Shown piece by piece: positions 6,625 to 32,921 of a stretch of 64,000 bases of DNA (position 1 is the first letter of the stretch; each line of letters starts with the position of its first letter). The stretch is from a virus. The DNA lies in the IMG/VR virus record IMGVR_UViG_3300025664_000001, positions 6,652 to 70,651 of that record. One strand, 5' to 3'. Made by a program: the position numbers and the translations under genes. The notes beneath the pieces were generated by a model that was not told the DNA's origin, made no database searches, and saw only the letters and a program-made list of their open reading frames with translations.

Positions 6625-7317
6625 TAGTGCGGGCGCGGATGGTACTTCGACGGGTCGGTTCCGAAGATCGCGTCGAGCAGCTTCTCTTCGGGCGTCCGCT
6701 TGTCGCCGGTAACGATCTTGGCGCCGTTGCTCAGTTCTTCGAAACTGATGACCGCAAACCCCTCGCGCTTCAGCGCCTCGGTCAGCTTCTTTTCCAGTTC
6801 CTTGGAGTCTACGGCCGGGATATCGCTGGGGTTGATGATGACATGCCCGTTCTGCTTGAAGGAATGTTTCATCGACTCTGCGACGCGGTCCACTCTTGCC
6901 TCGTGGAAGGTCTTGGCATCTTCCGCCAGCTTGCCGGCGCCGTAGCCCGTCTTCAAGGCGGCGAGCTTGTCGGCCTTAGTATGCTTCTCTTCGATACGGT
7001 CGAGCCGTTCGATTTCGGCGACGAGCATCGTCGCGGCGATGACGAGATTCTGACGCGCACTGTCCGCCGGGTGAAACTCATTGCGTGCCCAAGCCCAGAG
7101 CCCGGCCTCGTGCATGAAGCCTTTCGTGTCGTCGTCGCTCAGGTCGCCAAGGATTCGCTCGACGCCCTCGTAGGCGTAGCAGATCGCACCGTCGGCAATC
7201 TCGCCAGCCTTGTATGCGTCGTCGTGCGCTGCGCTGTACCTGTCCTTCTGCTTCTCGCGTTCGGCAACGATTTCATTGAGAACGCGGACAGTAGCGAGTG
7301 CGGAATGACTCATCATG
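6624..7317 (-). CDS. conserved phage protein (ER..Q..HDD...R.NLV.A.A..VAEIERLDR family)
   Basis: recognisable motif; start probably at MMSHS (~7317), exact start uncertain. Confidence 0.65.
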
Positions 7318-12772: not shown

Positions 12773-12966
12773 AACTGTGTAAACGGCTTCGGTCGGTGAC
12801 GGCGCGATTCAGGCGCACCGACTATCTCTACTTCGGCCACTCGACGGTGATCGACGGGCGCCCGTACGACCGCGGCTTCACGCAGGGCTTTGGGCCGTTC
12901 ATGCTGCACGTTCACTGGAAATCGAAGAAGCTCGTCGAGGGAGATGCATCACTTGGACCCTCTTAA
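12769..12966 (+). CDS. hypothetical protein
   Basis: ATGA overlap, GGAG RBS. Confidence 0.5.
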   Translation: MKLCKRLRSVTARFRRTDYLYFGHSTVIDGRPYDRGFTQGFGPFMLHVHWKSKKLVEGDASLGPS

Positions 12967-14365
12967 CGACGCAGAATTCGTGCGCCTGCTCGCGCAGGCA
13001 AACGAAGCCGGCTTGCTCGACGAGATGCTGCGTTCGCATCCCGAGATTGCCCGCGTCATCGGCGCCGACTGGGCGCTGCTCCAGCGGCCGGACCAACGCA
13101 CCCCGCCCGGCGACTGGGTGACGTGGCTCATTCTGGCAGGACGCGGCGCCGGCAAGACGCGCACCGGAGCCGAGTGGATCAATGGGCTGGCGGCCACGGG
13201 CCTCTATCCGAGCATCGCGCTTGTTGCCGAGACCGCGGCCGACGTGCGCGACGTTATGATGGACGGCCCGAGCGGCATCATGCACACCGGCCACCCGGAT
13301 TCCCGGCCCAAGTACCGAACTTCCCGCCGCAAGGTCGAGTGGCCGAACGGCACGATTGCGCAGACTTACTCCGCCGACGACCCCGAGCAGCTTCGTGGTC
13401 CGCAGTTTCACGCGGCTTGGTCCGACGAGTTGGCGAAATGGCGCTACGCCGACGAGGCGTGGTCCAACTTGCAGTTTGGCCTTCGACTCGGGCAAAATCC
13501 GAGGCAGACTGTGACTACTACTCCGCGTCCGATGAAGCTCATTCGCGAGATGATCATTGAGTCGCGAAAGAAGCATCCCTCGGTCGTTCTCACCCGCGCT
13601 TCGACTAGCGCGAACATGGTCAACCTCGCGCCGTCGTTCCTGAAGACGGTCGTTGCGAAATACGTCGGCACTCGTCTCGGCCGGCAAGAACTGGAAGCCG
13701 AGATTCTCGACGACAACCCTTACGCGCTCTGGAAGCGGGACACGATAGACAAGTACCGCGTGCCGGGCGTGAATCGGGAACTGACGCGCATCGTCGTCTC
13801 GGTAGACCCGCCGACGACGAGCGGTGAAGACGCCGACGAGTGCGGCATCATCGTTGCCGGCTGCACGGCCGGGTTTGGGAACGACCGGCACTACTTCGTG
13901 CTGGACGACATGACGACGCAGGGCATGCGGCCGATGCGCGATAGTGTCGATGACGATTTGGGCTGGGCGGACATTGCGATCAATGCGTGGAAGCTTCACC
14001 ACGCCGATTGCATCGTCGCCGAAGTGAACAACGGCGGCGAGATGGTCACGCAGACTATCACCCGCGCTTCAGGCGGGACGGCGATTGCCGTTCGCTCCGT
14101 GCGTGCGACGCGCGGCAAAGTTACTCGGGCCGAACCTATCTCGGCACTCTACGCTCAGGGCAAGGTGCATCACGTCGGCACCTTCGCCAAGCTGGAGGAT
14201 CAGATGACAGAGTTTTCCAGCGACTTCGACAAGAAGACCGCCGGCTACTCCCCCGACCGCGTCGATGGCCTCGTCTGGGCACTGACGGAACTGTCGGGTA
14301 GCAACTGGGAAACGATTGATGACCGCGTCGGCGCAGTCGGCCCGCGGCAACAGGGTGAGGGATAG
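12944..14365 (+). CDS. terL: terminase large subunit
   Basis: Walker A GRGAGKT, LRGPQF, Walker B WSDE, TTTP, nuclease VSVDP...DRVD. Confidence 0.95.
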   Translation: MHHLDPLNDAEFVRLLAQANEAGLLDEMLRSHPEIARVIGADWALLQRPDQRTPPGDWVTWLILAGRGAGKTRTGAEWINGLAATGLYPSIALVAETAADVRDVMMDGPSGIMHTGHPDSRPKYRTSRRKVEWPNGTIAQTYSADDPEQLRGPQFHAAWSDELAKWRYADEAWSNLQFGLRLGQNPRQTVTTTPRPMKLIREMIIESRKKHPSVVLTRASTSANMVNLAPSFLKTVVAKYVGTRLGRQELEAEILDDNPYALWKRDTIDKYRVPGVNRELTRIVVSVDPPTTSGEDADECGIIVAGCTAGFGNDRHYFVLDDMTTQGMRPMRDSVDDDLGWADIAINAWKLHHADCIVAEVNNGGEMVTQTITRASGGTAIAVRSVRATRGKVTRAEPISALYAQGKVHHVGTFAKLEDQMTEFSSDFDKKTAGYSPDRVDGLVWALTELSGSNWETIDDRVGAVGPRQQGEG

Positions 14366-14366
14366 T

Positions 14367-15992
14367 ATGGCGAATCAACAGCCGCAAGGCTCGAACCCGC
14401 GTTCTCGGCTCGGCGCATTTCTCGCGAACACTTTCGGCCTCAACCGCTACAACACTCCGCCGACGCAAACCGCGGGCGTGTCCGGCATCGTCTCTGCCGG
14501 CGGCTTTCTCATGTCGCCCGAGCGCGACGAGCGCTTGATTGGCGACCGCAAGTGGAAGACCTTTGCCGACCTGATCAATGACCACTCGATTATCTCCGCG
14601 GGCGTGCGCTACTTTCAGGCAATCATCGCGAAGGCGGACTGGAAAGCCGAAGCGGTCAGCGATAAGCCGGACGCCGTGGCGGCGGCCGAGTTTGTTGACG
14701 AAGCGCTCGACCGGATGGCGACTTCGTGGAAGCGCATCGTGCGCCGCGCCGCGCTCTATCGGTTCTACGGCTACTCGTTGCAGGAGTGGACCGCGCAGAC
14801 GTGGGACGACGGGCGCATCGGCATCATGGACGTGGAGCTTCGTCCGCAGCGCACGATCCGCCGCTGGGACTTGGATATCGGCGGGACGGTGCAGGGCGTT
14901 GGCCAGTGGGCGCCGCAGACCGGCGTCGAGCTTTATATTCCGCGCTCGAAAATGCTCTACCTCGTCGATGACGCGCTGAGCGACGACCCGGAAGGTATCG
15001 GCCTGCTCCGTCACATCGTTGCGCCGGCCGCTCGGGCGTCGCGCTACCTGCAACTGGAAGGCTGGGGCTTCGAGACTGACTTGCGCGGCGTGCCGATTGG
15101 GCGCGCTCCGGTCCAGACCCTCAAGGACCAAGTCAAGGCCGGCACGATCACGCAGGCCGACATGGATTTGGAACTGCGCGACATGAAAGCTTTCCTTGAT
15201 CGGCACGTGAAAGACCCGAGCACCGGCTACATGCTCGACTCCGGCTCGTACCCGACCAAAGGCCCCGTCGCCGACAACCCGACGAGCTATCCGAAGTGGG
15301 GCTTCGAACTGATCAACGGCGGCTCGACCGCGTTCCAACAGATTGCCACGGCGCTCGACCGGCTCAATCACGAGATGGCGTGGGTGCTCGGCGTCGAGCA
15401 CGTGCTGCTCGGGCAGGACACCGGCTCGTTCGCGCTCGCCAAGTCGAAGACCACGAACCTCTATCAAGTCGCTGACTCTGTCCTTACGGAAATCGCGCAG
15501 TCGGCTTCGCGCGATATCATCGACAATCTCTGGGCGCTCAACGGCTTCGACGAAGACCTGAAGCCGGTGCTCGTCGCAGAGAGCGCGCAGTTCAAGGACG
15601 TGGCGCAAATGTCCGCGGTGCTGAAGGACATGGCCGCCGCGGGCGCTCTGCTCGCCCCGGGCGACCCGGCGGTCAACGTGATGCGCGGGCTGATCGGCCT
15701 GCCTGACGCGGACACTTCGGGCTCTGCGCTCGTGGACGCGGCGCTGTTGAACGCGGGTATCGACCCGGCCGACGTGGGCCTCGGGGTTCCCGTCGTGGCC
15801 AAGCCGGCCAAGACCCCGCCTCAGTCGCCCTCGGGCACCGGACTGCCGAACGAGAATAACCCGGCCGTGCCGGATAGTTCGCGCGGCGCGGCAACTCCGG
15901 GAGCGAAGAAGACGTTCTACGGATACGATTCAAAGCAGTCGCGCATGCAGCGCGCTATGCGCAAGGCGCTCAAGAAGGCAAAGGCGAAATAG
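14367..15992 (+). CDS. portal protein (DUF935-like)
   Basis: follows terL; YGYS..E, PEG.GLLR, GSFALA motifs. Confidence 0.85.
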   Translation: MANQQPQGSNPRSRLGAFLANTFGLNRYNTPPTQTAGVSGIVSAGGFLMSPERDERLIGDRKWKTFADLINDHSIISAGVRYFQAIIAKADWKAEAVSDKPDAVAAAEFVDEALDRMATSWKRIVRRAALYRFYGYSLQEWTAQTWDDGRIGIMDVELRPQRTIRRWDLDIGGTVQGVGQWAPQTGVELYIPRSKMLYLVDDALSDDPEGIGLLRHIVAPAARASRYLQLEGWGFETDLRGVPIGRAPVQTLKDQVKAGTITQADMDLELRDMKAFLDRHVKDPSTGYMLDSGSYPTKGPVADNPTSYPKWGFELINGGSTAFQQIATALDRLNHEMAWVLGVEHVLLGQDTGSFALAKSKTTNLYQVADSVLTEIAQSASRDIIDNLWALNGFDEDLKPVLVAESAQFKDVAQMSAVLKDMAAAGALLAPGDPAVNVMRGLIGLPDADTSGSALVDAALLNAGIDPADVGLGVPVVAKPAKTPPQSPSGTGLPNENNPAVPDSSRGAATPGAKKTFYGYDSKQSRMQRAMRKALKKAKAK

Positions 15993-17207: not shown

Positions 17208-19410
<2,203 letters not shown>

Positions 19411-19411
<1 letters not shown>

Positions 19412-20078: not shown

Positions 20079-20456
20079 ATGCCTATGATTTTCGGAGTAG
20101 ACATTGCCGGCATTCTCGCGACGCAGATGGGTCCGCTCTTGCTGCCGGCGACGCTGCGCGTCTTCTCGACCGCTCAGACGCGCGTCGATGGCGACCTGAC
20201 GGCGGGCACCGTGAAGATCGCGACCGTGAGCACCGCGGCGCGCGGGTTCGTAGAAACCTACGACACGAAAGATCAGGGCGCCGGAAGCATCGTGCAAGTC
20301 GGCGACCGCAAGATCAGCTTGCTCGGTGCCACGCTTGGCGGAATGATTCCCGTGCCCGGCGACGAAATCGATATTGAGGGCGACACCTACACCGTCGTCG
20401 ATGTGCAACGTGACCCCGCCGCGGCGATGTTCACGTGCCAAAGCCGGAGGGCGTAA
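20079..20456 (+). CDS. head closure / head-tail joining protein
   Basis: GDRKI..L, P.PGD.I, DPA.A.F.CQ.R. Confidence 0.75.
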   Translation: MPMIFGVDIAGILATQMGPLLLPATLRVFSTAQTRVDGDLTAGTVKIATVSTAARGFVETYDTKDQGAGSIVQVGDRKISLLGATLGGMIPVPGDEIDIEGDTYTVVDVQRDPAAAMFTCQSRRA

Positions 20457-20790: not shown

Positions 20791-21600
20791 ATGAGAGGAA
20801 TTCTCGCGGCAGTCTTCGGGCTGTTCATCGCACTTGCACTACCGGCTAACGCGGCCGACCTGACAAAGTTCCATGATCAGATGCTCTCGCCGTCCGTCTT
20901 CATCACGATGGGCGACGTGGGCAGTTGCTCGGGCGAAATCATTTACTCGAACCGTGATCAGGACACCGGCGACGTTTCGACGTACATTCTCACGGCGAAG
21001 CACTGCGTCGCGGACCTTGGCGTGAACGACCTGAAGATCAGCGTGCCGACGTACGATGGCAACCTGATCGAAACGGGTGCGGCTGTTTATCGCGCAACCG
21101 TGGACGAGTCTTCGTGGAAGCACGATGTTGCTATCCTGATCTTGGACGACAAGAAAACGAAGTTCGACCATGTGGCGCTTATCGCCGCACCGGATGCCGT
21201 TCTCGTCGAGGGCGAGGACTCGTGGACTGTCGGCTACCCGCTTGCCACTTCGCGCACGATCACGAAGGGCTTGATTGGCTCACAGACTTTTGAGGACGCC
21301 AGCTTTCTTCCGGGCTCGTCCGCAAAGCTCGCGCCTTTCGTTCGTGGCACGTCACAGTCTGCCCCCGGCACGTCCGGCGGTGGTCTCTATCATCAGGCCG
21401 CGAGCGGCGACTATGAGCTAGTCGGCACTGCGTCTGGAGCTTACAACGGCCACGACTTCGTCGCGCTCTACACCGGCTTCAGGGATATCGACGATTTCCT
21501 GAATTCGCAAGAGACCGTCATGTTCAAGGCGTTGTTCCCGAACTACAAAGACCCGAAAGCGAAGAAGTCGGACCCCGGCTCGTACTACGGTTCGCACTAA
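20791..21600 (+). CDS. trypsin-like serine protease with signal peptide
   Basis: TAKHC (His), DVAIL (Asp), GTSGGG (Ser); N-terminal signal ending ANA. Confidence 0.85.
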   Translation: MRGILAAVFGLFIALALPANAADLTKFHDQMLSPSVFITMGDVGSCSGEIIYSNRDQDTGDVSTYILTAKHCVADLGVNDLKISVPTYDGNLIETGAAVYRATVDESSWKHDVAILILDDKKTKFDHVALIAAPDAVLVEGEDSWTVGYPLATSRTITKGLIGSQTFEDASFLPGSSAKLAPFVRGTSQSAPGTSGGGLYHQAASGDYELVGTASGAYNGHDFVALYTGFRDIDDFLNSQETVMFKALFPNYKDPKAKKSDPGSYYGSH

Positions 21601-21607
21601 GGGATCG

Positions 21608-22669
21608 ATGGGTTCCGTCGTAAACAGCACTCAGGGCTCGGGAGAAGAGAAGCGCGTCGTCGCTATTCTCTCCCGGGCCGAACCTGCGATTCATCGGCAG
21701 TTCATGTCGATGGTGGCCGCGATCAGGCGGCAGTGGACTCCCGAATATCTGATGACGATGATCCGGCAGGGCTCGCTTGAGCCGGCCATGGTCGTCGTGC
21801 AGGCGAACGCTCAGCGCTTCGCTTCCGAAGTCAACAACGTTTTCATTGGCGCCGGCATGAGCGCGGCGGACGCAGCTACGGCTTCGTTCGCGCGTCTGAC
21901 TGTGCGCAAGGCCGCGCATCCCGTTGCCGAGCACGTCATCGCCTTTGCCTTCGATCAAGTGAATCATAAGGCCGTGACGGCGATGAAGTCGGCGTCTCTC
22001 CGGCTCGTCACCGGCCTTACGTCGGGTCAGAGGGGCGCGGTGAAGTCGGCGCTTGTTCAAGGCGTCACGGTCGGTATGAACCCCGTTTCGGCTGCGCGGC
22101 TGTTGCGCGGGAGTATCGGGCTGACTGAGACTCAACAGGGCTACGTGAACAATTTCCAAACGTCATTGCAGGCCGGCAACAAGTCTGCGCTTGACTACGT
22201 ACTTCGCGACAAGCGCTACGACCCCACGATTGTCGGCGCGGCGGATGCTGGCACGGTTCTCACCGACGAGCAAATCGCGGCGATGACTGATCGCTACGCG
22301 AACAACTGGCTCAACTTTCGTGCGGACACGATTGCGAGAACTGAATCGCTAAGTGCAGTTCATGCCGGCAATCAGCAAGGCTGGGATCAAGCGCTAGTGC
22401 AGGCTCAATCGTCGCCGGCCGCCGCGTCGATTTCTCCCCAGCTTGAGCGCGAGTGGGTGACGGCGGAAGACGAGCGCGTGCGCGATAGTCATGCGGAAAT
22501 GGACGGGCAGGTTGTCGGGCAGGACGAGCCGTTTGTCTCCGGTGATGGCAACGAGTTGATGTACCCGGGCGACCCGTCTGCCCCGCCCGAGGAAGTTATC
22601 CGGTGTCGCTGTGCGGTTGCGACTACGTTCGCCGACGGAAGCACGGACACTCAGACCGCCGACGGATAA
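21608..22669 (+). CDS. phage Mu F-like minor head protein
   Basis: RADTIARTE, W....DERVR.SH, YPGD......IRCRC. Confidence 0.9.
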   Translation: MGSVVNSTQGSGEEKRVVAILSRAEPAIHRQFMSMVAAIRRQWTPEYLMTMIRQGSLEPAMVVVQANAQRFASEVNNVFIGAGMSAADAATASFARLTVRKAAHPVAEHVIAFAFDQVNHKAVTAMKSASLRLVTGLTSGQRGAVKSALVQGVTVGMNPVSAARLLRGSIGLTETQQGYVNNFQTSLQAGNKSALDYVLRDKRYDPTIVGAADAGTVLTDEQIAAMTDRYANNWLNFRADTIARTESLSAVHAGNQQGWDQALVQAQSSPAAASISPQLEREWVTAEDERVRDSHAEMDGQVVGQDEPFVSGDGNELMYPGDPSAPPEEVIRCRCAVATTFADGSTDTQTADG

Positions 22670-22855
22670 AGTGCAGGCGCGCAATCACCCCCGGCGCGCT
22701 CGGGCTATCCTGTCATCCGTGCCTTTCGGATCATGCAGCGCAGACACCGCCGTTCATCAACGGCGCTTCCGAAAGGCAATCAAGCCCCAGCCTATCGAGC
22801 CGGCCAAGGGGCGAGGAATGAAACCAGCCCAAGCTCGCAAGAAGGGAACCCTCCT

Positions 22856-23707
22856 ATGGGTCACATCGTTGAAAAGTCCCCCGTCACCTTCAAAGAGCCG
22901 GTAGAGTTTAAGAAGGCCGTCACGTTCGACGTGTCTTCGCCCTACTCCGTCGATGAAGTCACCAGTGGTGGCGACGTGGACCTGACTCTTTCTACCGGCG
23001 TTTCGAAGCTGGCGAAGGTGCTGATCAAGCACGTCGCAAGCGTGGTCAACCAGATCGCGATGTACGCTTCGGCGACCGGCGTCGCACTCCGTATCGTCGC
23101 CGTTGGCACGGATTCCAACATAGACGTTTCGCTTGAGCCGAAGGGCACGGGCCTGCTTCGCACTATCGCGAACTTCTGGAAGGTCGGCACGACCAACCTC
23201 CTGTTCGGCGTCGGCGCGACGAACCTCGTCGCGTTCGGTGTCAAGTACGTCGCCGTGGCCGTCAACTACATTCTCGCGCTCCCGTCCGCTACGGGCAACG
23301 CGGTTGAGTTGCAGGCTACCGGCACGGATACCGATATTGGCATTCTGCTGACTCCGAAGGGCGCCGGTCACGTGACCGTTGCCAAGCTCCAGCTTGCCGT
23401 CACCGCGGTTGCCGCGGCCGGTTCGATCATCTCCGATGCCGGCGCTCTTGCCGAAGGCATCAACGTCGTCTCTGCCGCTAACGGCACGAAGGGCGTCATC
23501 CTCCCGGTCTCTCCGGCGGCTGGCGGCATTCTGTGTCTGGTCATCGGAACCGTTGCCGCGGTCCTGAAGGTCTGGCCGCAGTCCGGCGCCACGATCAATG
23601 CGTTGTCCGCCTCGGCGGCAATGTCGCTCGCCTCTGGCCCGATCCCGGCGATCTTCGTTTCGGTGTCGGCGACTCAGTGGTACAGCTTCCCGCTGCTGCC
23701 CTCGTAG
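22856..23707 (+). CDS. structural protein (head decoration/fibre-like)
   Basis: internal repeat (A.GTD..I...L.PKG.G) twice; position in the head module. Confidence 0.6.
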   Translation: MGHIVEKSPVTFKEPVEFKKAVTFDVSSPYSVDEVTSGGDVDLTLSTGVSKLAKVLIKHVASVVNQIAMYASATGVALRIVAVGTDSNIDVSLEPKGTGLLRTIANFWKVGTTNLLFGVGATNLVAFGVKYVAVAVNYILALPSATGNAVELQATGTDTDIGILLTPKGAGHVTVAKLQLAVTAVAAAGSIISDAGALAEGINVVSAANGTKGVILPVSPAAGGILCLVIGTVAAVLKVWPQSGATINALSASAAMSLASGPIPAIFVSVSATQWYSFPLLPS

Positions 23708-23797: not shown

Positions 23798-26700
23798 ATG
23801 ACTGCCCGACTGTACCGTCTCCCTGCCGAAGTGATCGAGTCTGCGCGCCTCGCGAAGACGATTGCCGCCGTGACCGGCGAAGACTCCGGCTCCCCGCTTG
23901 TCAACAAAGTCTCGGTCCCGCTCGCCATCGTCAAGAGCATGGTAGCAGCGCTCGCGACCGATAAAGGCTACCAGCACTTTCTCGCATGGGGCGGAACGCC
24001 CGGCAAGAAGTGGGCGGAGCGCACCGTCAAGTACAACGAGAACCACGACCCGGCCAGCGGCCAGTTCTCGGACGGCAGTGGCGGCGGCTCGGGCACGGGC
24101 GACGCTGCCCGCAGTCTCGCGGCGGCCGGTGGCCAGAAGCCGCTCACCGGGCTCCCGCAGAAGCCGCTCACCGTCAACGGCAAAGAATTCATCCCCGGCC
24201 CTAACGCCACGGCTCGCGAGGCAGCGCGCCAGTACATGCAGAACGCCGGGCTCCCGTACAATCCTCCGAGCGACTATGTCAAGGTGGACCCCGCGAACGC
24301 GACGAACATTGCCAACGCCTACGACGCGATGGCCCACGACCCGACCAATCCGCAGGTGGCCGCCGCGTACGATGCGATGATCAAGGAAACTATCGCGCAG
24401 TACGGCGTGATCGAGAAGACCGGGCTCAAGGTGGACTTCATTGCGCCCGGCGCTCCCGACCCGTACGCCGAGTCTCCGCGCATGATGCAGCAAGACGTGC
24501 GCGACAACAATCATATGTGGGTTTTCCCGACCGTCTCCGGATTCGGCAGTGGTGACGCAGCGTCGCAAGAGGCGATGAAGAATAACCCGCTGCTCGCGCC
24601 GTCCGGCCTCGTCGCCAACGGTCACGCCATGGTGGCGAACGATGTGTTCCGAGTTGTCCACGACTACTTCGGCCACTTCAAAGAGGGCAACGGCTTCCGC
24701 GCCGTGGGCGAAGAGAACGCTTGGCGCTCGCACTCTGCGATGTATACCCCGCTCGCGCGACAGGCGATGACGAGCGAGACGCGCGGGCAAAACTCATGGG
24801 TCAACTACGGCCCGCACGGAGCCACGAACCGGACGGCCAGCGGCACTGACACGGTCTATGCTCCGCAGAAGATTGGGCTGATGCCGGCGTGGACGACGAA
24901 GGCGGTCGAGAAGTACAACGAGAACCACGATGCTCGGGGCCAGTTCTCAGACGGCAGCGGGTCGATGACTCCCTATCGAAATACTTTTGGCACGTCGAGC
25001 TTCTACGACCCTAAGCACTTCACCACTCGTGAATCCAAACTGGTTGGGGAGGACGGCGCCGTCCTTTCATCTCACGACGTTCCGGTTCCTCTCGCTGGCA
25101 GTTGGCCGAAGTTTCCTCTGACAAGCGCACAAGACGGTGTTTTGTATCGCGGCATGTCCGCCAAGGAATACGCGGCGTTTCAGCAAACCGGCCAAGTCCA
25201 AACGGCGGGCGCCTATAATATGGGTGATCAGCAAAAGGGATTGACCTACTTCACCACGGACCCGCAGTCTGCCGCGAGCTACTCGAACGGTTTTGCTCCC
25301 GCCGAATTCAAGCCGTCTCCCGGAAACCCGGCTTACGTTGTCGGTGTGAAGACGCCTTCCGCTGATCGTCTGCGCAATATGTATGGCCAAGCGGGAAACA
25401 TGGGCGTGAGCGATGAACGCGGGGTCGTCGGTTCCATCCCCGCGAGCGACGTTGTGTCGGTTCACCGCGGGGACGTGATCGAGTACACCCCCCAGATCAA
25501 TAACTCTCGGGGTGAGCGGGCGGTCTCTGCCAGCGCGACTCTTTTGTGGACCCGAGTGGATGCTCACAAGTACAACGAGAACCACGATGCGCGTGGTCAA
25601 TTTTCTGCCGGCGATAATTTGCGGGCGGCGGCCGATGCGAAGTGGCCCCGCAACCCTCTCAACGAACGCCAGCACATTGTCCAGACTCCCGGTGGCATCG
25701 CGCTATTGGAGTTGGCCCCCGCTATGCAGGGCTCGTCGAAGCCGGTGCATGTGTCGTGGATGCAGGCAACTCCGCAGGGGGCCGGCGTGGGCACGGCGGC
25801 GATGCGCCAGCTAACTGATCTGGCAGATCAGCACGGCGCGAAACTTGACCTGTTCACGTGGGATGGCGGTCATCGCGAGGGCGACCTGAAAACCTTCTAT
25901 GGCCAGCATGGCTTTAAGCCGGGCAAGCAAGACCCTTCGTTGCTGGTGCGGGCGCCGAAGGCTGCGAAGTACAACGAGAACCACGATGCACGCGGGGAAT
26001 TCTCGTCTGCCGACTCCGCGATGTTCGTCGCGGCTCGTGACCAAGGTTCCAAGCATCCCGGATTTCTCGATAAACAGCCGGCCAGTGCGCTAGGCGATCA
26101 TCAGCTATTGCTCGGCCATGGTGGCAAGGTCGGTGTTGCCGTCAGCCCGAACGGGGATATCCAAAACGTCTTCAACAACGGTGGGCCGCCCGGCGCAGGC
26201 GCCGACGCCGTGCGCGCAGCTATCGCGGCCGGCGGCGATCATCTCAATGCTTTCGATGGTAAGCTACCGGCTTACTATCAGCAATTCGGCTTCAAGGAAA
26301 TTGGCCGCGTGCCGTTCAATCCGTCCCTAGCCCCTAGCGGATGGAACACGCAGCGCTACGGCACGCCCGACATTGTCCACATGGCTCTCGCAACTGGCCG
26401 TGGTTCGGAGAGCGATCTGATCGCGGCGAGCGCGCAACAGCGTGCGGCCCTGACTCGCGCAACGGCGGCGATTCAGTCGCGCAACGGCGGCGGGCTTGAC
26501 AAGGCGATCTTCGGAACGCGCATCGACGACGCAGTCTTCGGCAAGGATAGCCCGACCGGCGCCGCGGTTCACGTCCCCGTTCCTCTCTCGAACGGCGTCC
26601 GCCGCAAGAAGCCGAAAGCGCTCGACGACGAGGCGATTGCGAAAGCGATCTTCGGCGACGACTATGTCAAGTTCAATCCGAACCACGATGCTCGCGGACT

Positions 26701-27580
26701 CTTTTCCGATGGTGCTGGTGGCGGCGCCGTCAGCGAACCGGAAGGAATGGGCGGCACGGTTAGCTCTGCCCACGGCGAGGCGACCAAGCTGTTTAATCAG
26801 CATGGTGGCGCCTCGGCCCGGACGGCGGATGCAATCATTGCCGGCTTTCGTGGCGGCGCGGAAGCTATCAAGCAGACTCAGGCGATGCTTGCTGCGACCC
26901 CGGCGACGGATGCTCAGGTCTCTGCCGGAGGCTTCAAGAATCCGGACGGCTCATGGACCGTTGACCGTCAGGCTCTTCACGCGCAAATTCTCGACAAGAT
27001 ATTCACTCCGAACGCGGTGGACGCGGCGACCCCGGTGGCCGGGCAGTCCCCGACCCTTACGGTGCTCGGTGGGCGCGGCGGCTCGGGCAAGAGTTTCTTG
27101 ACTGGGCCGTCCGGACCCGTGGACCCGTCGAAGGCGATCATGCTTGACTCGGATGCGGTCAAGGCTATGCTGCCCGGATATGCCGGTTGGAATGCTCAGT
27201 TGTATCACGAGGAGTCCACGGCGATCTTGGACGCGGCAGACCAGCGCGCAACGGCGCTAGGTGTAAACGTCATCCACGACGCGACCATGAAGTCCGAGGG
27301 AACGCTCGCTGGGCGCATGACGACGTTTCAGGCGGCGGGGTATAATGTTTCCGGGCACTATATGTTCGCGTCGCCGGAAGTAGCGGCAGAGCGTGCGATG
27401 ACTCGCTTCGCTAAGGGCGGTACTTTCAGCGGTCGCTATGTTCCGGTGAACGTGGTGCTAGGCAACGTCAACAACGAAAAGAATTTCGACCGTATCACCC
27501 CCGGTCTCAGTAAGTGGTCGGTGTGGGACAACAACGCGACCGGCGGGACGCCCCGTCTGGTAGCACAAGGAGGCAAGTAA
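23798..27580 (+). CDS. multi-domain (polyvalent) head-module protein: HDxxGH domain, ART-like, GNAT x2, zeta-toxin-like P-loop kinase, separated by repeated K[YF]NxNHDxxGxFS tags
   Basis: five tag copies (aa 78, 372, 591, 724, 958); HDYFGH/GEENAW; LYRGMS..YFT; QGAGVG..FY...GF; GAG..YY..FGF; GGRGGSGKS, DSD..K, HEES, DATM. Confidence 0.8.
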   Translation: MTARLYRLPAEVIESARLAKTIAAVTGEDSGSPLVNKVSVPLAIVKSMVAALATDKGYQHFLAWGGTPGKKWAERTVKYNENHDPASGQFSDGSGGGSGTGDAARSLAAAGGQKPLTGLPQKPLTVNGKEFIPGPNATAREAARQYMQNAGLPYNPPSDYVKVDPANATNIANAYDAMAHDPTNPQVAAAYDAMIKETIAQYGVIEKTGLKVDFIAPGAPDPYAESPRMMQQDVRDNNHMWVFPTVSGFGSGDAASQEAMKNNPLLAPSGLVANGHAMVANDVFRVVHDYFGHFKEGNGFRAVGEENAWRSHSAMYTPLARQAMTSETRGQNSWVNYGPHGATNRTASGTDTVYAPQKIGLMPAWTTKAVEKYNENHDARGQFSDGSGSMTPYRNTFGTSSFYDPKHFTTRESKLVGEDGAVLSSHDVPVPLAGSWPKFPLTSAQDGVLYRGMSAKEYAAFQQTGQVQTAGAYNMGDQQKGLTYFTTDPQSAASYSNGFAPAEFKPSPGNPAYVVGVKTPSADRLRNMYGQAGNMGVSDERGVVGSIPASDVVSVHRGDVIEYTPQINNSRGERAVSASATLLWTRVDAHKYNENHDARGQFSAGDNLRAAADAKWPRNPLNERQHIVQTPGGIALLELAPAMQGSSKPVHVSWMQATPQGAGVGTAAMRQLTDLADQHGAKLDLFTWDGGHREGDLKTFYGQHGFKPGKQDPSLLVRAPKAAKYNENHDARGEFSSADSAMFVAARDQGSKHPGFLDKQPASALGDHQLLLGHGGKVGVAVSPNGDIQNVFNNGGPPGAGADAVRAAIAAGGDHLNAFDGKLPAYYQQFGFKEIGRVPFNPSLAPSGWNTQRYGTPDIVHMALATGRGSESDLIAASAQQRAALTRATAAIQSRNGGGLDKAIFGTRIDDAVFGKDSPTGAAVHVPVPLSNGVRRKKPKALDDEAIAKAIFGDDYVKFNPNHDARGLFSDGAGGGAVSEPEGMGGTVSSAHGEATKLFNQHGGASARTADAIIAGFRGGAEAIKQTQAMLAATPATDAQVSAGGFKNPDGSWTVDRQALHAQILDKIFTPNAVDAATPVAGQSPTLTVLGGRGGSGKSFLTGPSGPVDPSKAIMLDSDAVKAMLPGYAGWNAQLYHEESTAILDAADQRATALGVNVIHDATMKSEGTLAGRMTTFQAAGYNVSGHYMFASPEVAAERAMTRFAKGGTFSGRYVPVNVVLGNVNNEKNFDRITPGLSKWSVWDNNATGGTPRLVAQGGK
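24029..26700 (+). repeat. dispersed direct repeat AAGTACAACGAGAACCACGA
   Basis: identical 20-mers at 24029, 24911, 25568, 25967; diverged copy at 26669. Confidence 0.9.
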
Positions 27581-29601: not shown

Positions 29602-29654
29602 AACATGGCCCCTCCCGGCCTCAGATGCAAAGACTATGTTTACACGTGCTTAAC
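29602..29654 (-). promoter_or_regulatory. early promoter with CtrA-like box
   Basis: minus strand TTAA-N7-TAAA (plus strand TTTA-CACGTGC-TTAAC) just upstream of TTGCAT-N17-CATGTT. Confidence 0.6.
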
Positions 29655-29708
29655 AGAAAGTTGCAGTTTTACCGCCGGTTGCACTTGCCGGCGTGCAATC
29701 CTGTCAGC

Positions 29709-30125
29709 ATGACGACTGAGAAGTTTTCCCAGTTCTTCAAGGTTGACTCTGTTGACGAGCAGCTTGGCATCGTTTTCGGATGGGCCATGATCTGCACCGA
29801 AGACGGCAAGCCGTACTTCGATCTTCAGGACGACCACATACCCGAGCACTCCATGACGAAGGCCCTCGCCGACTTCATGGAAAACCTCCGGGTGGCGAAG
29901 GACATGCATATCCCCGGCGACGCCGGGAAGCTTCCGGGAAGCATCGTCTTCGGGTTTCCGCTTACTACGGATATCGCGAAGAGCATGGGAATTTCGACTC
30001 GCAAGACGGGCGCCATCATCGGCATGAAGCCGGGCGACCCCGAAGTGCTTCGGAAATTTGCGAGCGGTGAGTACACGGGTTTCAGTATAGGCGGCGAACG
30101 CCTGCTTGACGAAGAGGCGGACTAG
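29709..30125 (+). CDS. XkdF-like prohead protease (N-terminal part)
   Basis: VFGWA, DLQDD, MH, G.YTGFSIGG. Confidence 0.8.
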   Translation: MTTEKFSQFFKVDSVDEQLGIVFGWAMICTEDGKPYFDLQDDHIPEHSMTKALADFMENLRVAKDMHIPGDAGKLPGSIVFGFPLTTDIAKSMGISTRKTGAIIGMKPGDPEVLRKFASGEYTGFSIGGERLLDEEAD

Positions 30126-30126
30126 A

Positions 30127-31326
30127 ATGTCCCGCACGATCATGCGTGCCATCAAGCTCGACGAAATTAGCGCGGTGGACAACCCCGCGCAGGAAGGCGC
30201 GCGTGCGACGATTGTCAAGCGCGCCCCTCCGATCAAGAAAGACGCGCAGACGAAGACGCAAGACGGAGAGGAATTTCCGAAAGGGGATTTCGCCTATACC
30301 CCGGACTCGACGGACCCGAGCACTTGGAAGCTTCGGACCACGTCCACTCCGGGAGGCAGTCCGGACGCTGATATCGTAGGCGCGGCGGCAGCGGCACTCT
30401 CGCCCGGTGGCTTTCGTGGCCAGAAGGTACAGATTCCCGAAGCTGATCGCCCCGGTGTCGTGGCCAAAGTGCGGGCCGCGTGGATCAAATCCAACCCGGA
30501 CAAAACCGAATCTGACATGCCGACTTCGCTCACGAAGTCCGGCGACGAACAGGAGAGTACCATGCCGATCAATGCCAACGAGAAGCCGGAAGATGCCATC
30601 AAGCGTCTTGACGGTGAAGTAAAGGCCGCCGCCGAGAAGGCCGCGACCGCCGAGAAGAACGCCAAAGAGCAGGCGACCGTCGCCAAGCTCAACGACGTTG
30701 CGAAGAAAGCTTTCGGCGACATGACCACTCAAGAGAAGGTGGCGTTCCATAACGCATCTTCCGAGGATCAAGAGGCCATGCTCGCCAAGGCCGTCGCCAA
30801 GTCCAGCGATGCCAACCCGGTCATCTACAAGGCCGTTGATGGCGTCGAGTACCGCAAGAACGATGACCCGCGCATGGTCGCGCTGGCCAAGCGTGCGGAC
30901 GAGTCGGACAAGGCTTCCCGCGAGAGCGTCGAGAAGGCCGCGAACGCGGACTTCGCAAAGCGCGCTGGCACCGAACTCGCCAACCTCCCCGGCGACGAAG
31001 TCGTGAAGGTTGCAGTCCTGAAGGCCGTCGAAGGCATCAAGGACGAAGCCGCCAAGAAGGGCGCGCTCGCGCTGCTCAAGGCCGGCAACACCGCCATGAA
31101 GGGCGCGTTCGTCCGTAAGGGCGCTGGCGTCGATAAGGCCGGCGAGACTGCCGACGAGTCGACTCAGGATGGCGCCGAAGCCAAGATCGACACTCTGGCC
31201 AAGGCCATTGTCGAGAAGAGCGCCGGCAAGACCAGCTACGCCGCTGCGTACACGAAGGTTCTCGAAGAGAACCCCGACCTGTACGAAATCGCCACGGGTG
31301 GCGATGCAAACGAAGACAGCGAGTAG
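30127..31326 (+). CDS. scaffold protein with N-terminal protease strand (LDEISAVDNPAQ) and FAY.PD..PSTWKL domain
   Basis: Ala/Lys/Glu-rich helical body, many hydrophobic-x-K-A/S sites, upstream of capsid genes. Confidence 0.75.
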   Translation: MSRTIMRAIKLDEISAVDNPAQEGARATIVKRAPPIKKDAQTKTQDGEEFPKGDFAYTPDSTDPSTWKLRTTSTPGGSPDADIVGAAAAALSPGGFRGQKVQIPEADRPGVVAKVRAAWIKSNPDKTESDMPTSLTKSGDEQESTMPINANEKPEDAIKRLDGEVKAAAEKAATAEKNAKEQATVAKLNDVAKKAFGDMTTQEKVAFHNASSEDQEAMLAKAVAKSSDANPVIYKAVDGVEYRKNDDPRMVALAKRADESDKASRESVEKAANADFAKRAGTELANLPGDEVVKVAVLKAVEGIKDEAAKKGALALLKAGNTAMKGAFVRKGAGVDKAGETADESTQDGAEAKIDTLAKAIVEKSAGKTSYAAAYTKVLEENPDLYEIATGGDANEDSE

Positions 31327-31459: not shown

Positions 31460-31843
31460 ATGAGCCTCGAACAGAATCTCACGAACGTTTCCATCCTCGC
31501 GGGTGAAGACCTGTCTGCCGGGCAGTACCTCGGCGTGGCTGTTGCCACTGACAACACTGGCGTCAAGCGCGTTGCGACGCTGGGTGCTCAGGGCGTTGGC
31601 ATTCTCCAGAATGCTCCCGTCTCTGGCCAGCCGGCTTCCGTCGGCATTGTCGGCATCTCGAAAGCTATCGTTGGCGTGGGCGACGTTGCCTCTGCCGGCC
31701 TGAAGCTTCAGTTCGATGCCGCCGGCAAGGTCATCGCTTGGGCCACTGCCGGTCACTATGCTTGTGGCGTCTCGCTTGATGCGGGCGTTGCGGGTGTCGT
31801 GATCCGCGTGTTGCTCGGCTCGGCCCCGGCTCAGGCGACCTAG
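31460..31843 (+). CDS. capsid decoration/cement protein
   Basis: small Gly/Ala/Val beta protein directly upstream of the MCP; GILQNAP, G..I.VLL. Confidence 0.75.
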   Translation: MSLEQNLTNVSILAGEDLSAGQYLGVAVATDNTGVKRVATLGAQGVGILQNAPVSGQPASVGIVGISKAIVGVGDVASAGLKLQFDAAGKVIAWATAGHYACGVSLDAGVAGVVIRVLLGSAPAQAT

Positions 31844-31895: not shown

Positions 31896-32921
31896 ATGGT
31901 TTCCCGCATGAAAAAGGGTCGCTTCTACAAGAGCAACCCGACTCAGGGCGACGTTCACGTCAATGCCCCGCTTACGAACATCTCCATCGCGTTCCTTCAG
32001 AGCGCGTCGGCGTTCGTAGCCGATCAGGTGTTCCCGAACATTCCGGTTTCGTTCCAGAGCGACCGCTACTACACCTACGACCGCGGCTACTTCAACCGCG
32101 ACGAGATGGCGAAGCGCGCCGAAGGCACGGAGTCCGCAGGTTCGGGCTACAAGATCGACAATACCCCGACCTACTTCGCCGACGTGTGGGCGTTCCATCA
32201 CGACATTTCGGACCAGCGCCGCGCGAACAGCGATACGGTGCTTCAGCCCGACATGGAAGCGACGAACCTCGTCACCGGCAAGGCGCTTCTCAAGCGTGAG
32301 AAGACTTGGGTCGCGAACTACTTCGTGGCCGGCAAGTGGACCGCCGACTACACTGGCGTTGCTTCTGCCGAAGATAACGTCACGACCTTCCGTCAGTGGA
32401 ACGATGCCAACTCGACGCCCATCGAAGACCTTCGCGCTGCAAAGACGAACGTCCTCGAACTGACCGGCTTCGAGCCGAACACTCTGGTCATCGGCCAGCG
32501 CGTGTTCGACAAGCTGATCGACCACCCGGACATTGTGGACCGTGTCAAGTACGGCCAGACCGCTCCCGGCCCGGCCATGATTGACGTGGCCGAACTCGTC
32601 GCCCTGTTCAAGATTCCCCGCATCTTCGTGATGAAGGCAATCGAGAATACGGCAGCGGAAGGCGCGTCCAACGTCCACTCGTTCATCGGTGGCAAGAAGG
32701 CGTTCCTCTGCTACGCAGCCCCGGCTCCCGGTCTCCAGACCCCGACCGCCGGCTACACGTTCTCGTGGACCGGAATGTTCGGCGCCGCGAACAACGGCCA
32801 GCGTATCAAGCGCTTCCGTCTGGAGCGCATCGCGTCCGACCGCGTCGAAATCGAGATGGCGTACGTCCAGTCGCTTATCTCGGCCGACCTTGGCGCGTTC
32901 TGGGATACCATCGTCGCGTAA
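31896..32921 (+). CDS. major capsid protein
   Basis: VHVNAPLTNISIA, FVADQVFP..PV, PNTLV, P.AGYTF motifs; strong codon bias. Confidence 0.9.
   Translation: MVSRMKKGRFYKSNPTQGDVHVNAPLTNISIAFLQSASAFVADQVFPNIPVSFQSDRYYTYDRGYFNRDEMAKRAEGTESAGSGYKIDNTPTYFADVWAFHHDISDQRRANSDTVLQPDMEATNLVTGKALLKREKTWVANYFVAGKWTADYTGVASAEDNVTTFRQWNDANSTPIEDLRAAKTNVLELTGFEPNTLVIGQRVFDKLIDHPDIVDRVKYGQTAPGPAMIDVAELVALFKIPRIFVMKAIENTAAEGASNVHSFIGGKKAFLCYAAPAPGLQTPTAGYTFSWTGMFGAANNGQRIKRFRLERIASDRVEIEMAYVQSLISADLGAFWDTIVA

Follow-up and report, generated by a model that had tools for sequence, protein, structure and literature searches.

To our knowledge, the way in which large injected effectors enter the phage head is known for only a few model phages and still open for polyvalent proteins without a fusion to MuF or the portal. 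This question is raised by a polyvalent head protein of 1260 amino acids (aa), in the following called the polyprotein, which is encoded at 23798-27580 on the + strand of a 64,000-nucleotide (nt) stretch of viral DNA (positions 6,652 to 70,651 of IMG/VR record IMGVR_UViG_3300025664_000001). We refer to this whole stretch as the window and give all coordinates in it; it lies in a virus contig of 70,651 nt that carries a siphophage head module on its + strand. In a linker at aa 916-932 (26543..26593, + strand) the polyprotein contains 17 residues that resemble the N-terminus of the major capsid protein (MCP) of the same phage (31896-32921, + strand; 341 aa, lambda-E-like, PF03864, phrog_1005). 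The initial annotation of the window took this stretch for a copy of the capsid N-arm that docks the polyprotein as cargo onto the inner shell or scaffold and shares the processing site of the MCP. We conclude that the stretch is a copy of a movable short linear motif imitating the near-invariant N-arm of lambda-E-like (in the following E-like) MCPs.

The N-arm sequence in the polyprotein linker

Translation of 26543-26593 gives KDSPTGAAVHVPVPLSN, and translation of 31929-31979 (+ strand), which encodes the N-arm motif of the MCP (aa 12-28), gives KSNPTQGDVHVNAPLTN. Aligned without gaps, the two peptides are identical at 9 of 17 positions; both begin with a lysine and both are preceded by F-x (FGK and FYK, respectively), and the coordinates, peptides and identities agree with those of the initial annotation. 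The same is true of the flanking KAIFG and AVFG segments. The upstream flank (26501..26542, + strand), which was seen in the window phage only, contains KAIFG at aa 902-906 and AVFG at aa 912-915, and a second KAIFG at aa 949-953 is followed by the fifth of a series of linkers described below (aa 958-969; 26642..26704 for both, + strand). Just past the motif lies a basic cluster, R-R-K-K-P-K (26600..26617, + strand).

Between the polyprotein and the MCP this pair is the best ungapped 17-mer, with a BLOSUM62 score of 46 that was reached in none of 300 shuffles (maximum 45). Nine identities were obtained by chance in 19 of 300 shuffles, and BLASTP of the polyprotein-MCP pair gave E = 0.012. Taken alone, the pairwise match is marginal; it becomes convincing because the identities fall on positions that are invariant in the MCP family. 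At E <= 1e-10 this family numbers 3897 homologues, and the best 120 were compared. Among the matches listed, the N-terminus is almost invariant (M-x-P-T-x-G-D-V-H-V-N-x-P-L-T-N-I-S-I-A), and in the family alignment of these matches the N-terminal residues are among the most conserved of the MCP. The identities shared with its near-invariant positions are P, T, V-H-V, P-L and N. A position matrix was built from 86 unique family N-termini, the window phage and its 89%-identical relative being excluded. This matrix scored 18.5 bits at the polyprotein site and 1.0 bit at the next best of 70,926 six-frame window positions, and the exact tail probability of 1.8e-9 per position gives an E-value of about 1.3e-4 for the window. 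Judged by the family matrix, the polyprotein indeed contains a copy of the N-arm sequence of the MCP, as the initial annotation had proposed.

The alternative that two short Pro/Val-rich stretches resemble each other by chance can draw on the BLASTP value and the shuffle frequency given above. It can also draw on a local HMMER profile (15-22 columns), which left the site unresolved from noise (3-5 bits, domain E of 0.6-2.5 with 17-22 columns), a result that counts against a copy; this profile was replaced by the ungapped position matrix. The low E-value of that matrix and its 17-bit gap to the next site point in the other direction, as do at least 17 distinct proteins that have the motif, on the coding strand only (see below), and chance is an extremely improbable explanation. 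No third coding copy was found in the whole 70,651-nt contig. A 'GDVHVPKPEG' at 20423-20452 was put down to chance, as it is out of frame and non-coding and spans a gene junction.

Most MCPs of the family begin two to three residues ahead of P-T. The MCP of the window phage has a 12-residue N-terminal extension, M1-K12 (31896..31931, + strand), which is absent from most relatives; a good ribosome-binding site precedes M1. An AlphaFold2 monomer model of this MCP has the HK97 fold with a mean predicted local distance difference test score (pLDDT) of 78.4, and a Foldseek search with the model returned 3BJQ at 1.5e-18, followed by phage capsids and encapsulins. In the monomer model, residues 1-30 lack secondary structure and have pLDDT values under 50, which would fit a trans-acting N-arm that becomes ordered only in the assembled shell. 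In a sequence search for a solved capsid of this MCP family only 3BJQ was found, the N-terminus of which lies outside the alignment. N-terminal sequencing of the MCP is mentioned in the genome notes of phages KPP23 and 9NA, where the sequence itself is not printed.

Recurrence of the motif

MCP-anchored loci were fetched from IMG/VR and scanned with the family matrix and with regular expressions. The expression P-x(2-4)-[DAG]-[VI]-H-[VI]-[PA] matched 35 times on the MCP strand versus once on the opposite strand at equal translated length. The scans yielded 17 distinct coding instances of a motif of the form K-x(1-13)-[GSN]-P-[TD]-x-x-[DAG]-V-H-V-[PA], usually continued by x-P-[LM]-G and a basic tail; a Lys/Arg-rich tail follows most, not all, of the copies in other phages. 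In an alignment of 16 copies P, V, H and V are invariant, and the upstream K and the following P are nearly so. The window copy groups with the non-MCP copies because it has V-H-V-P, the upstream lysine (K916) and the basic tail R-R-K-K-P-K.

The proteins that carry the motif are mutually unrelated, and its place in them differs. It is N-terminal in a large protein that begins M-T-V-I-R-K-D-G-P-D-A-G-D-V-H-V-P (L069) and probably also in L040, a polyvalent protein that combines HipA-like and ADP-ribosyltransferase domains in about 900 aa, where it lies near the N-terminus. It is internal in the window polyprotein and in the carriers from L051, L120 and L123. In a family of small proteins with a 'W-x-x-W-G-G-N-A-G-K' domain (phrog_2859-like; in the following W-G-G domain), the motif and its tail form the C-terminal end. 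The genes of these proteins lie between MuF and a polyvalent protein of 1350-1460 aa with NUDIX, WGR and ADP-ribosyltransferase domains. Two further small, unrelated carriers were found in L043 and L059. Furthermore, the motif is present in scaffold homologues, which were identified in L200/L242 by hhalign against the scaffold alignment (probability 94.8%, E 5e-8) and in L194/L225 by eye from the N- and C-terminal scaffold signatures; in scaffolds it stands directly after an N-terminal protease-like strand. Finally, it occurs in N-terminal extensions of XkdF-type proteases (the L208 group, L245 and the L220 group; PF14550, 4e-13 to 3e-25). As with prohead-protease motifs, the MCP, the scaffold, the protease and the cargo all carry it. 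Since they comprise polyvalent cargo, a small cargo domain, scaffolds and protease extensions, the carriers appear to be proteins that live inside the procapsid. As a side observation, the 'W-L-L-W-G-G-N' domain (phrog_2859-like), for which there is no Pfam family, is a widespread cargo domain of the head interior.

The copy in the window could also be a functionless relic, left behind when the 5' end of the MCP gene was duplicated or recombined into a linker of the polyprotein. Several codons agree between the two copies, namely CCG for P, GTT-CAC-GTC for V-H-V and AAC for N, no close homologue of the polyprotein shows the motif, and in L220 the MCP and the protease copy share an identical run of seven residues, where recent copying is possible. 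However, the identity of the two window copies at the DNA level is only 55 of 105 nt, and the polyprotein has the V-H-V-P, upstream lysine and basic tail of the non-MCP copies, not the MCP version. In addition, V-H-V-P is invariant amid variable linkers in the small W-G-G proteins, which points to selection. A relic is thus very unlikely, and we are confident that the motif is a real, recurrent and selected element tied to the E-like MCP family.

The initial annotation had also named co-variation of the motif with the MCP as a check. For 17 distinct MCP-carrier pairs, and at positions outside V-H-V, carriers scored 16.0 with the MCP of their own genome versus 13.7 +/- 1.0 after shuffling. In L220/L254, the clearest case, the MCP starts with M-A-M-P-T-L-H-D-V-H-I-D-G and the protease extension has K-M-G-P-T-L-H-D-V-H-V-P-G. 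Co-variation is present in weak form, 85 of 5000 shuffles reaching the observed value, and because the pairs are not independent it is a hint of coupling or of repeated copying and no proof.

The presence of the motif goes along with that of large cargo. We compared 37 MCP-anchored loci with at least 7 kilobases upstream of the MCP gene, a giant open reading frame (ORF) being one of at least 900 aa before the MCP. The motif is present in 11 of 15 loci with a giant ORF and in none of the 22 without; counted without near-duplicates, 9 distinct phages have the motif, and 2 have a giant ORF and lack it. In the distant MCP clades and cultured phages examined, giant cargo is absent, as is a second copy of the N-arm sequence.

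Furthermore, IMG/VR was searched with the small W-G-G domain alone, which gave 80 loci. Tails bearing the motif are limited to the nearest members of this family, and the MCP is E-like in 10 of 10 cases where it is visible in the locus. More distant members lack the motif and are fused to the portal (L166, L170), to S78, S49 or XkdF proteases (L153, L163, L145) or to protease-MCP fusions (L147, L152, L154), or they are embedded in polyvalent proteins (L121, L144). Likewise, P0158, P0159 and P0180, relatives of the polyprotein that share its linkers, are Mu-portal fusions without the motif. Since both the W-G-G domain and the relatives of the polyprotein are fused where the motif is absent, fusion and motif look like alternative routes into the head.

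A further scan of IMG/VR, independent of MCP and carrier, used a degenerate DNA pattern for G-P-x3-D-V-H-V-P and returned 79 stretches, 25 of which were judged from their sequence context to be the motif proper. Records with an E-like MCP account for 18 of these 25 (13 with the MCP within the locus and 5 more with it in the full record), and the other 7 lie in fragments that are at most 44% complete. All 53 remaining records that were searched lack an E-like MCP. It follows that the bare pattern of 10 residues is also present outside this group, whether by chance or in other families. As far as seen, the full motif is confined to the context of an E-like MCP. Among the other stretches are two small families in records without an E-like MCP, one with the context ...R-K-Y-W-V-W-Q-H... 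(L180, L240, L241) and one with ...G-F-K-E-Y-L-L-D-S-C-D-C-E... (L182, L184, L203, L207, L210, L250). The context of the pattern differs in these families, and both were taken as unrelated. The records behind L196 and L206 (G015 and G025) contain an MCP match with one in-frame TAA, which may stem from a sequencing error or from recoding, or mark a broken gene.

A proposed tag for targeting and cleavage

A lysine precedes the proline of the motif by 1-13 residues in every copy and is often close by (E-K-M-G-P, S-K-S-G-P, A-K-D-G-P, G-K-D-S-P). In MCPs with an N-terminal extension, lysine stands just before [N/Q]-P-T in 9 of the 10 listed, the window phage included, at a position where a cut would restore the usual MCP start. 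A processing site shared between MCP and polyprotein, as claimed by the initial annotation, is plausible from this arrangement. K916 is a candidate P1 residue of such a site in the polyprotein, the extension M1-K12 of the MCP is predicted to be removed after K12, and the XkdF-type protease encoded at 29625-30125 is the candidate enzyme. A cut after the lysine would give every carrier and every extended MCP an N-terminus like that of a standard MCP.

From its sequence features we propose that the motif is a dual tag for proteins of the head interior, combining targeting with cleavage, and we assign this reading a probability of roughly 0.55. The tag would serve head-interior proteins generally, beyond cargo, since the motif is also found in scaffolds and protease extensions. 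During procapsid assembly its MCP-like part would be bound by the partner of the real MCP N-arm, for which the inner face of a neighbouring MCP, the scaffold or the prime-side groove of the protease are candidates; in the case of the protease groove, the N-termini of the MCPs would be docking sites of the protease as well. Binding would carry the 1260-aa polyprotein into the head, no covalent attachment to portal or MuF being needed. The prohead protease would then cut after the upstream lysine, i.e. after K916 in the polyprotein and after K12 in the extended MCP, and the new end would resemble the start of an MCP. A complex prediction that combined the MCP without its N-arm, the C-terminal 115 residues of the scaffold and a 66-residue segment with the motif gave a score of 0.00, which speaks neither for nor against binding.

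Alternatively, the motif could be a recognition site of the XkdF-type prohead protease only, without any docking, and its likeness to the MCP would be a likeness among substrates. MCP, scaffold, protease and internal proteins are the classic set of substrates of prohead proteases such as T4 gp21 and SPN3US gp245. The near-invariance of the upstream lysine is in line with such a site, as are the extended MCPs, in which a cut after this lysine restores the usual start, and the scaffolds, in which the motif directly follows the protease-like strand. However, most MCPs of the family have no upstream lysine and, starting 2-3 residues before P-T, nothing to remove, and yet their N-terminal sequence is highly conserved; in the MCP it must therefore serve a purpose other than a cut at this lysine. 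Moreover, the conserved part extends over 10-14 prime-side residues, far more than in known prohead-protease motifs, and in the small proteins the motif and its basic tail form the extreme C-terminus, where a cut alone would give the domain no visible route into the head. The sequence kept by standard MCPs, the length of its conserved part and the replacement of covalent fusion by the motif are the reasons why targeting is favoured over a mere cut site, and we consider recognition by the protease alone unlikely.

Several points weigh against the dual tag or against the recurrence on which it builds. The set of carriers is exactly what a protease motif would give. In the cargo copies a proline takes the place of the invariant asparagine of the MCP (V-H-V-P versus V-H-V-N), and the invariant aspartate of the MCP is missing from several of them, the window copy included. 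The conservation in homologues for which the initial annotation had called is not seen among the relatives of the polyprotein itself, as the motif is present in 0 of 56 domain-homologues (two 'A-V-H-V-P-K-D' matches stand in a different context), and a search with the surrounding 141-residue region, covering proteins of similar length, returned the polyprotein alone. What is conserved is the motif as a movable module, which phages with the same MCP family carry in at least 17 distinct proteins of the head interior. Even there the tag is not universal, since no copy is recognisable by regular expression in L032/L034 and L061/L062, 4 of the 15 giant-ORF loci; a degenerate copy may be missed in this way, and L061 contains a doubtful 'V-V-V-H-A-P-T-P'. 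The cultured relatives KPP23, RDJL Phi 1, RHph_Y52, Tedan, Mulvp2, R6L and Vibrio 1.033.O have neither giant cargo nor the motif. The sorting of the stretches from the G-P-x3-D-V-H-V-P scan into 25 and 54 was done by eye from context. Finally, motif and MCP family could travel together simply by common descent; the loci lack phylogenetic independence, and there are several near-duplicates among them.

Going beyond a dual tag, an abundant siphophage lineage with E-like capsids may use imitation of the MCP N-arm as a general address label for the procapsid interior, borne by scaffold, protease and injected anti-host enzymes. A cut after the nearby lysine would leave every fragment with a capsid-like N-terminus, and the label would compete with or replace the real N-arms at their docking site until maturation. 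We put this idea forward tentatively, at somewhat less than even odds. If it is true, some 25 residues should suffice for loading foreign proteins into these capsids, and the packing of unfused polyvalent proteins would be explained. In any case, one short sequence connects four classes of head-interior proteins and suggests the shell protein's own arm as the template for an address label. The motif represents a testable loading or processing signal for a widespread, mostly uncultured group of phages; it should provide a rule for spotting packed proteins in metagenomic phages and possibly a tag for loading laboratory phage capsids.

The head module and related systems

The polyprotein combines several unrelated effector or enzyme domains in one chain, and its gene belongs to a packaging and head module in the order terminase, Mu-like portal, MuF, polyprotein, protease, scaffold and MCP, as is characteristic of polyvalent proteins. 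Its C-terminus is a Zeta-toxin-like P-loop kinase (aa 1080-1226; PF06414, 3e-19); aa 135-338 and 744-864 match PHROG families only, and there is a weak GNAT match at aa 660-708. By hhalign (42%, E 2.6e-4) there is a weak resemblance between its first 80 or so aa and the 'W-x-x-W-G-G' cargo domain. Five near-identical linkers of the form K-[YF]-N-x-N-H-D-x-x-G-x-F, starting at aa 78, 372, 591, 724 and 958 (24029-24064, 24911-24946, 25568-25603, 25967-26002 and 26669-26704, + strand), split the polyprotein into six domains. The linker after the W-G-G-like domain occupies the position that the V-H-V-P motif has in the relatives (hhalign). The version K-Y-N-E-N-H-D-E-L-G-R-F joins domains in the Mu-portal-fused polyvalent proteins P0158, P0159 and P0180 and is also present in P0177 and L028. 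Like the N-arm copies, these linkers start with a lysine; going by their sequence, they may be a second class of cleavage or docking site, and further cuts there would perhaps free the enzyme domains.

The head module starts with the large terminase (12890-14365, + strand) and the Mu-like portal (14316-15992, + strand). Between portal and MuF lies the gene of a 609-aa protein with seven stretches of collagen triple-helix repeats (17582-19411, + strand; PF01391, 7e-51), which may be a head fibre. Next to it within the module, with the collagen-like gene on one side and MuF on the other, sits a gene for a trypsin-like peptidase with a signal-peptide-like N-terminus (20791-21600, + strand; PF13365, PF00089); among the upstream ORFs of the relatives scanned, none matches the trypsin family. 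The gene of the MuF-like head morphogenesis protein (21608-22669, + strand) is the upstream border of a variable cargo slot seen in all relatives. It is followed by an ORF of 324 aa ahead of the polyprotein (22733-23707, + strand) that has no family match, contains internal repeats of the type A-T-G-x-A-x-x-I-x-A-x-G-T-D-x-x-I-x-x-x-L-x-P-K-G-x-G and is overlapped by a long ORF on the opposite strand.

Downstream of the polyprotein, the XkdF-type prohead serine protease (29625-30125, + strand; PF14550, likely start M29 at 29709) precedes an acidic scaffold-like protein (30106-31326, + strand; likely start ATG 30127). The two genes overlap by 20 nt in different frames, an arrangement that is kept in relatives. 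The scaffold-like protein shares with its relatives an N-terminal strand, 'L-D-E-I-S-A-V-D-N-P-A', and a C-terminal 'A-Y-x-K-V-x-x-x-N-P-x-L-Y'; in relatives the scaffold starts with the conserved strand I-D-E-I-S-L-V-D-x-P-A. This N-terminal strand resembles the last strand of HK97-type proteases, and the arrangement could represent a split protease-scaffold or a tether acting in trans. A probable cement or decoration protein (31460-31843, + strand) is encoded immediately upstream of the MCP gene. Its Pfam match is below the threshold; its homologues in L042 and L040 are above it.

No MCP-N-arm-like tag was found in the titles and abstracts of the literature on capsid targeting, polyvalent proteins, N-arms and prohead proteases. 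A close parallel is the capsid targeting sequence (CTS) of phage T4, an N-terminal peptide on the internal proteins and on Alt that binds the scaffolding core and is removed by the prohead protease. Both are short peptides on proteins that are packed into the head and injected, ADP-ribosyltransferases are among the cargo in both cases, and the combination of targeting with a protease cut is proposed here as well. In contrast to the CTS, which is not known to resemble the MCP N-terminus, the tag described here copies the MCP N-arm and is also present in scaffold and protease. Furthermore, it is not bound to the N-terminus: it is internal in the window polyprotein and C-terminal in the small proteins, and it is N-terminal only in L069 and probably in L040. 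In Staphylococcus phage 80alpha, MCP and scaffold share a short N-terminal sequence that is cut like that of ribosomal protein L27. There a host protease removes the motif itself, whereas here the product would keep the motif, which is found on cargo and protease as well.

Encapsulin cargo-loading peptides are likewise short modular peptides on the cargo of an HK97-fold shell, and they bind to its inner face. They are not known to imitate the N-arm of the shell protein or to involve a protease, and no sequence likeness was seen. In place of an encapsulin shell gene and a C-terminal loading peptide, the window contains the head module of a tailed phage, with terminase, portal and tail genes. 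With the sites of T4 gp21 and SPN3US gp245, the motif has in common that one sequence occurs across MCP, scaffold, protease and internal proteins of one phage. The known motifs of this kind comprise about three residues on the non-prime side, whereas the motif described here has 10-14 residues after the candidate lysine. Unlike known prohead-protease sites, it stands at the very N-terminus of most MCPs, where nothing is left to remove.

The available part of the study by Iyer et al. (2017; PMC5512222) attributes the packaging of polyvalent proteins to peptidase domains or to a fusion with MuF or portal; neither the word 'linker' nor an MCP-like tag appears in it. Like the proteins described in that part of the study, the polyprotein is a multi-domain effector whose gene lies among head genes and for which packing and injection are predicted; unlike them, it is unfused and carries a tag instead. 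The DarA-Hdf system of phage P1 also places injected anti-defence proteins on the inner surface of the capsid, where they bind as folded proteins at the penton-hexon junctions (PMC12810830). In the phages described here, the tag is instead a short peptide that resembles the N-terminus of the MCP.

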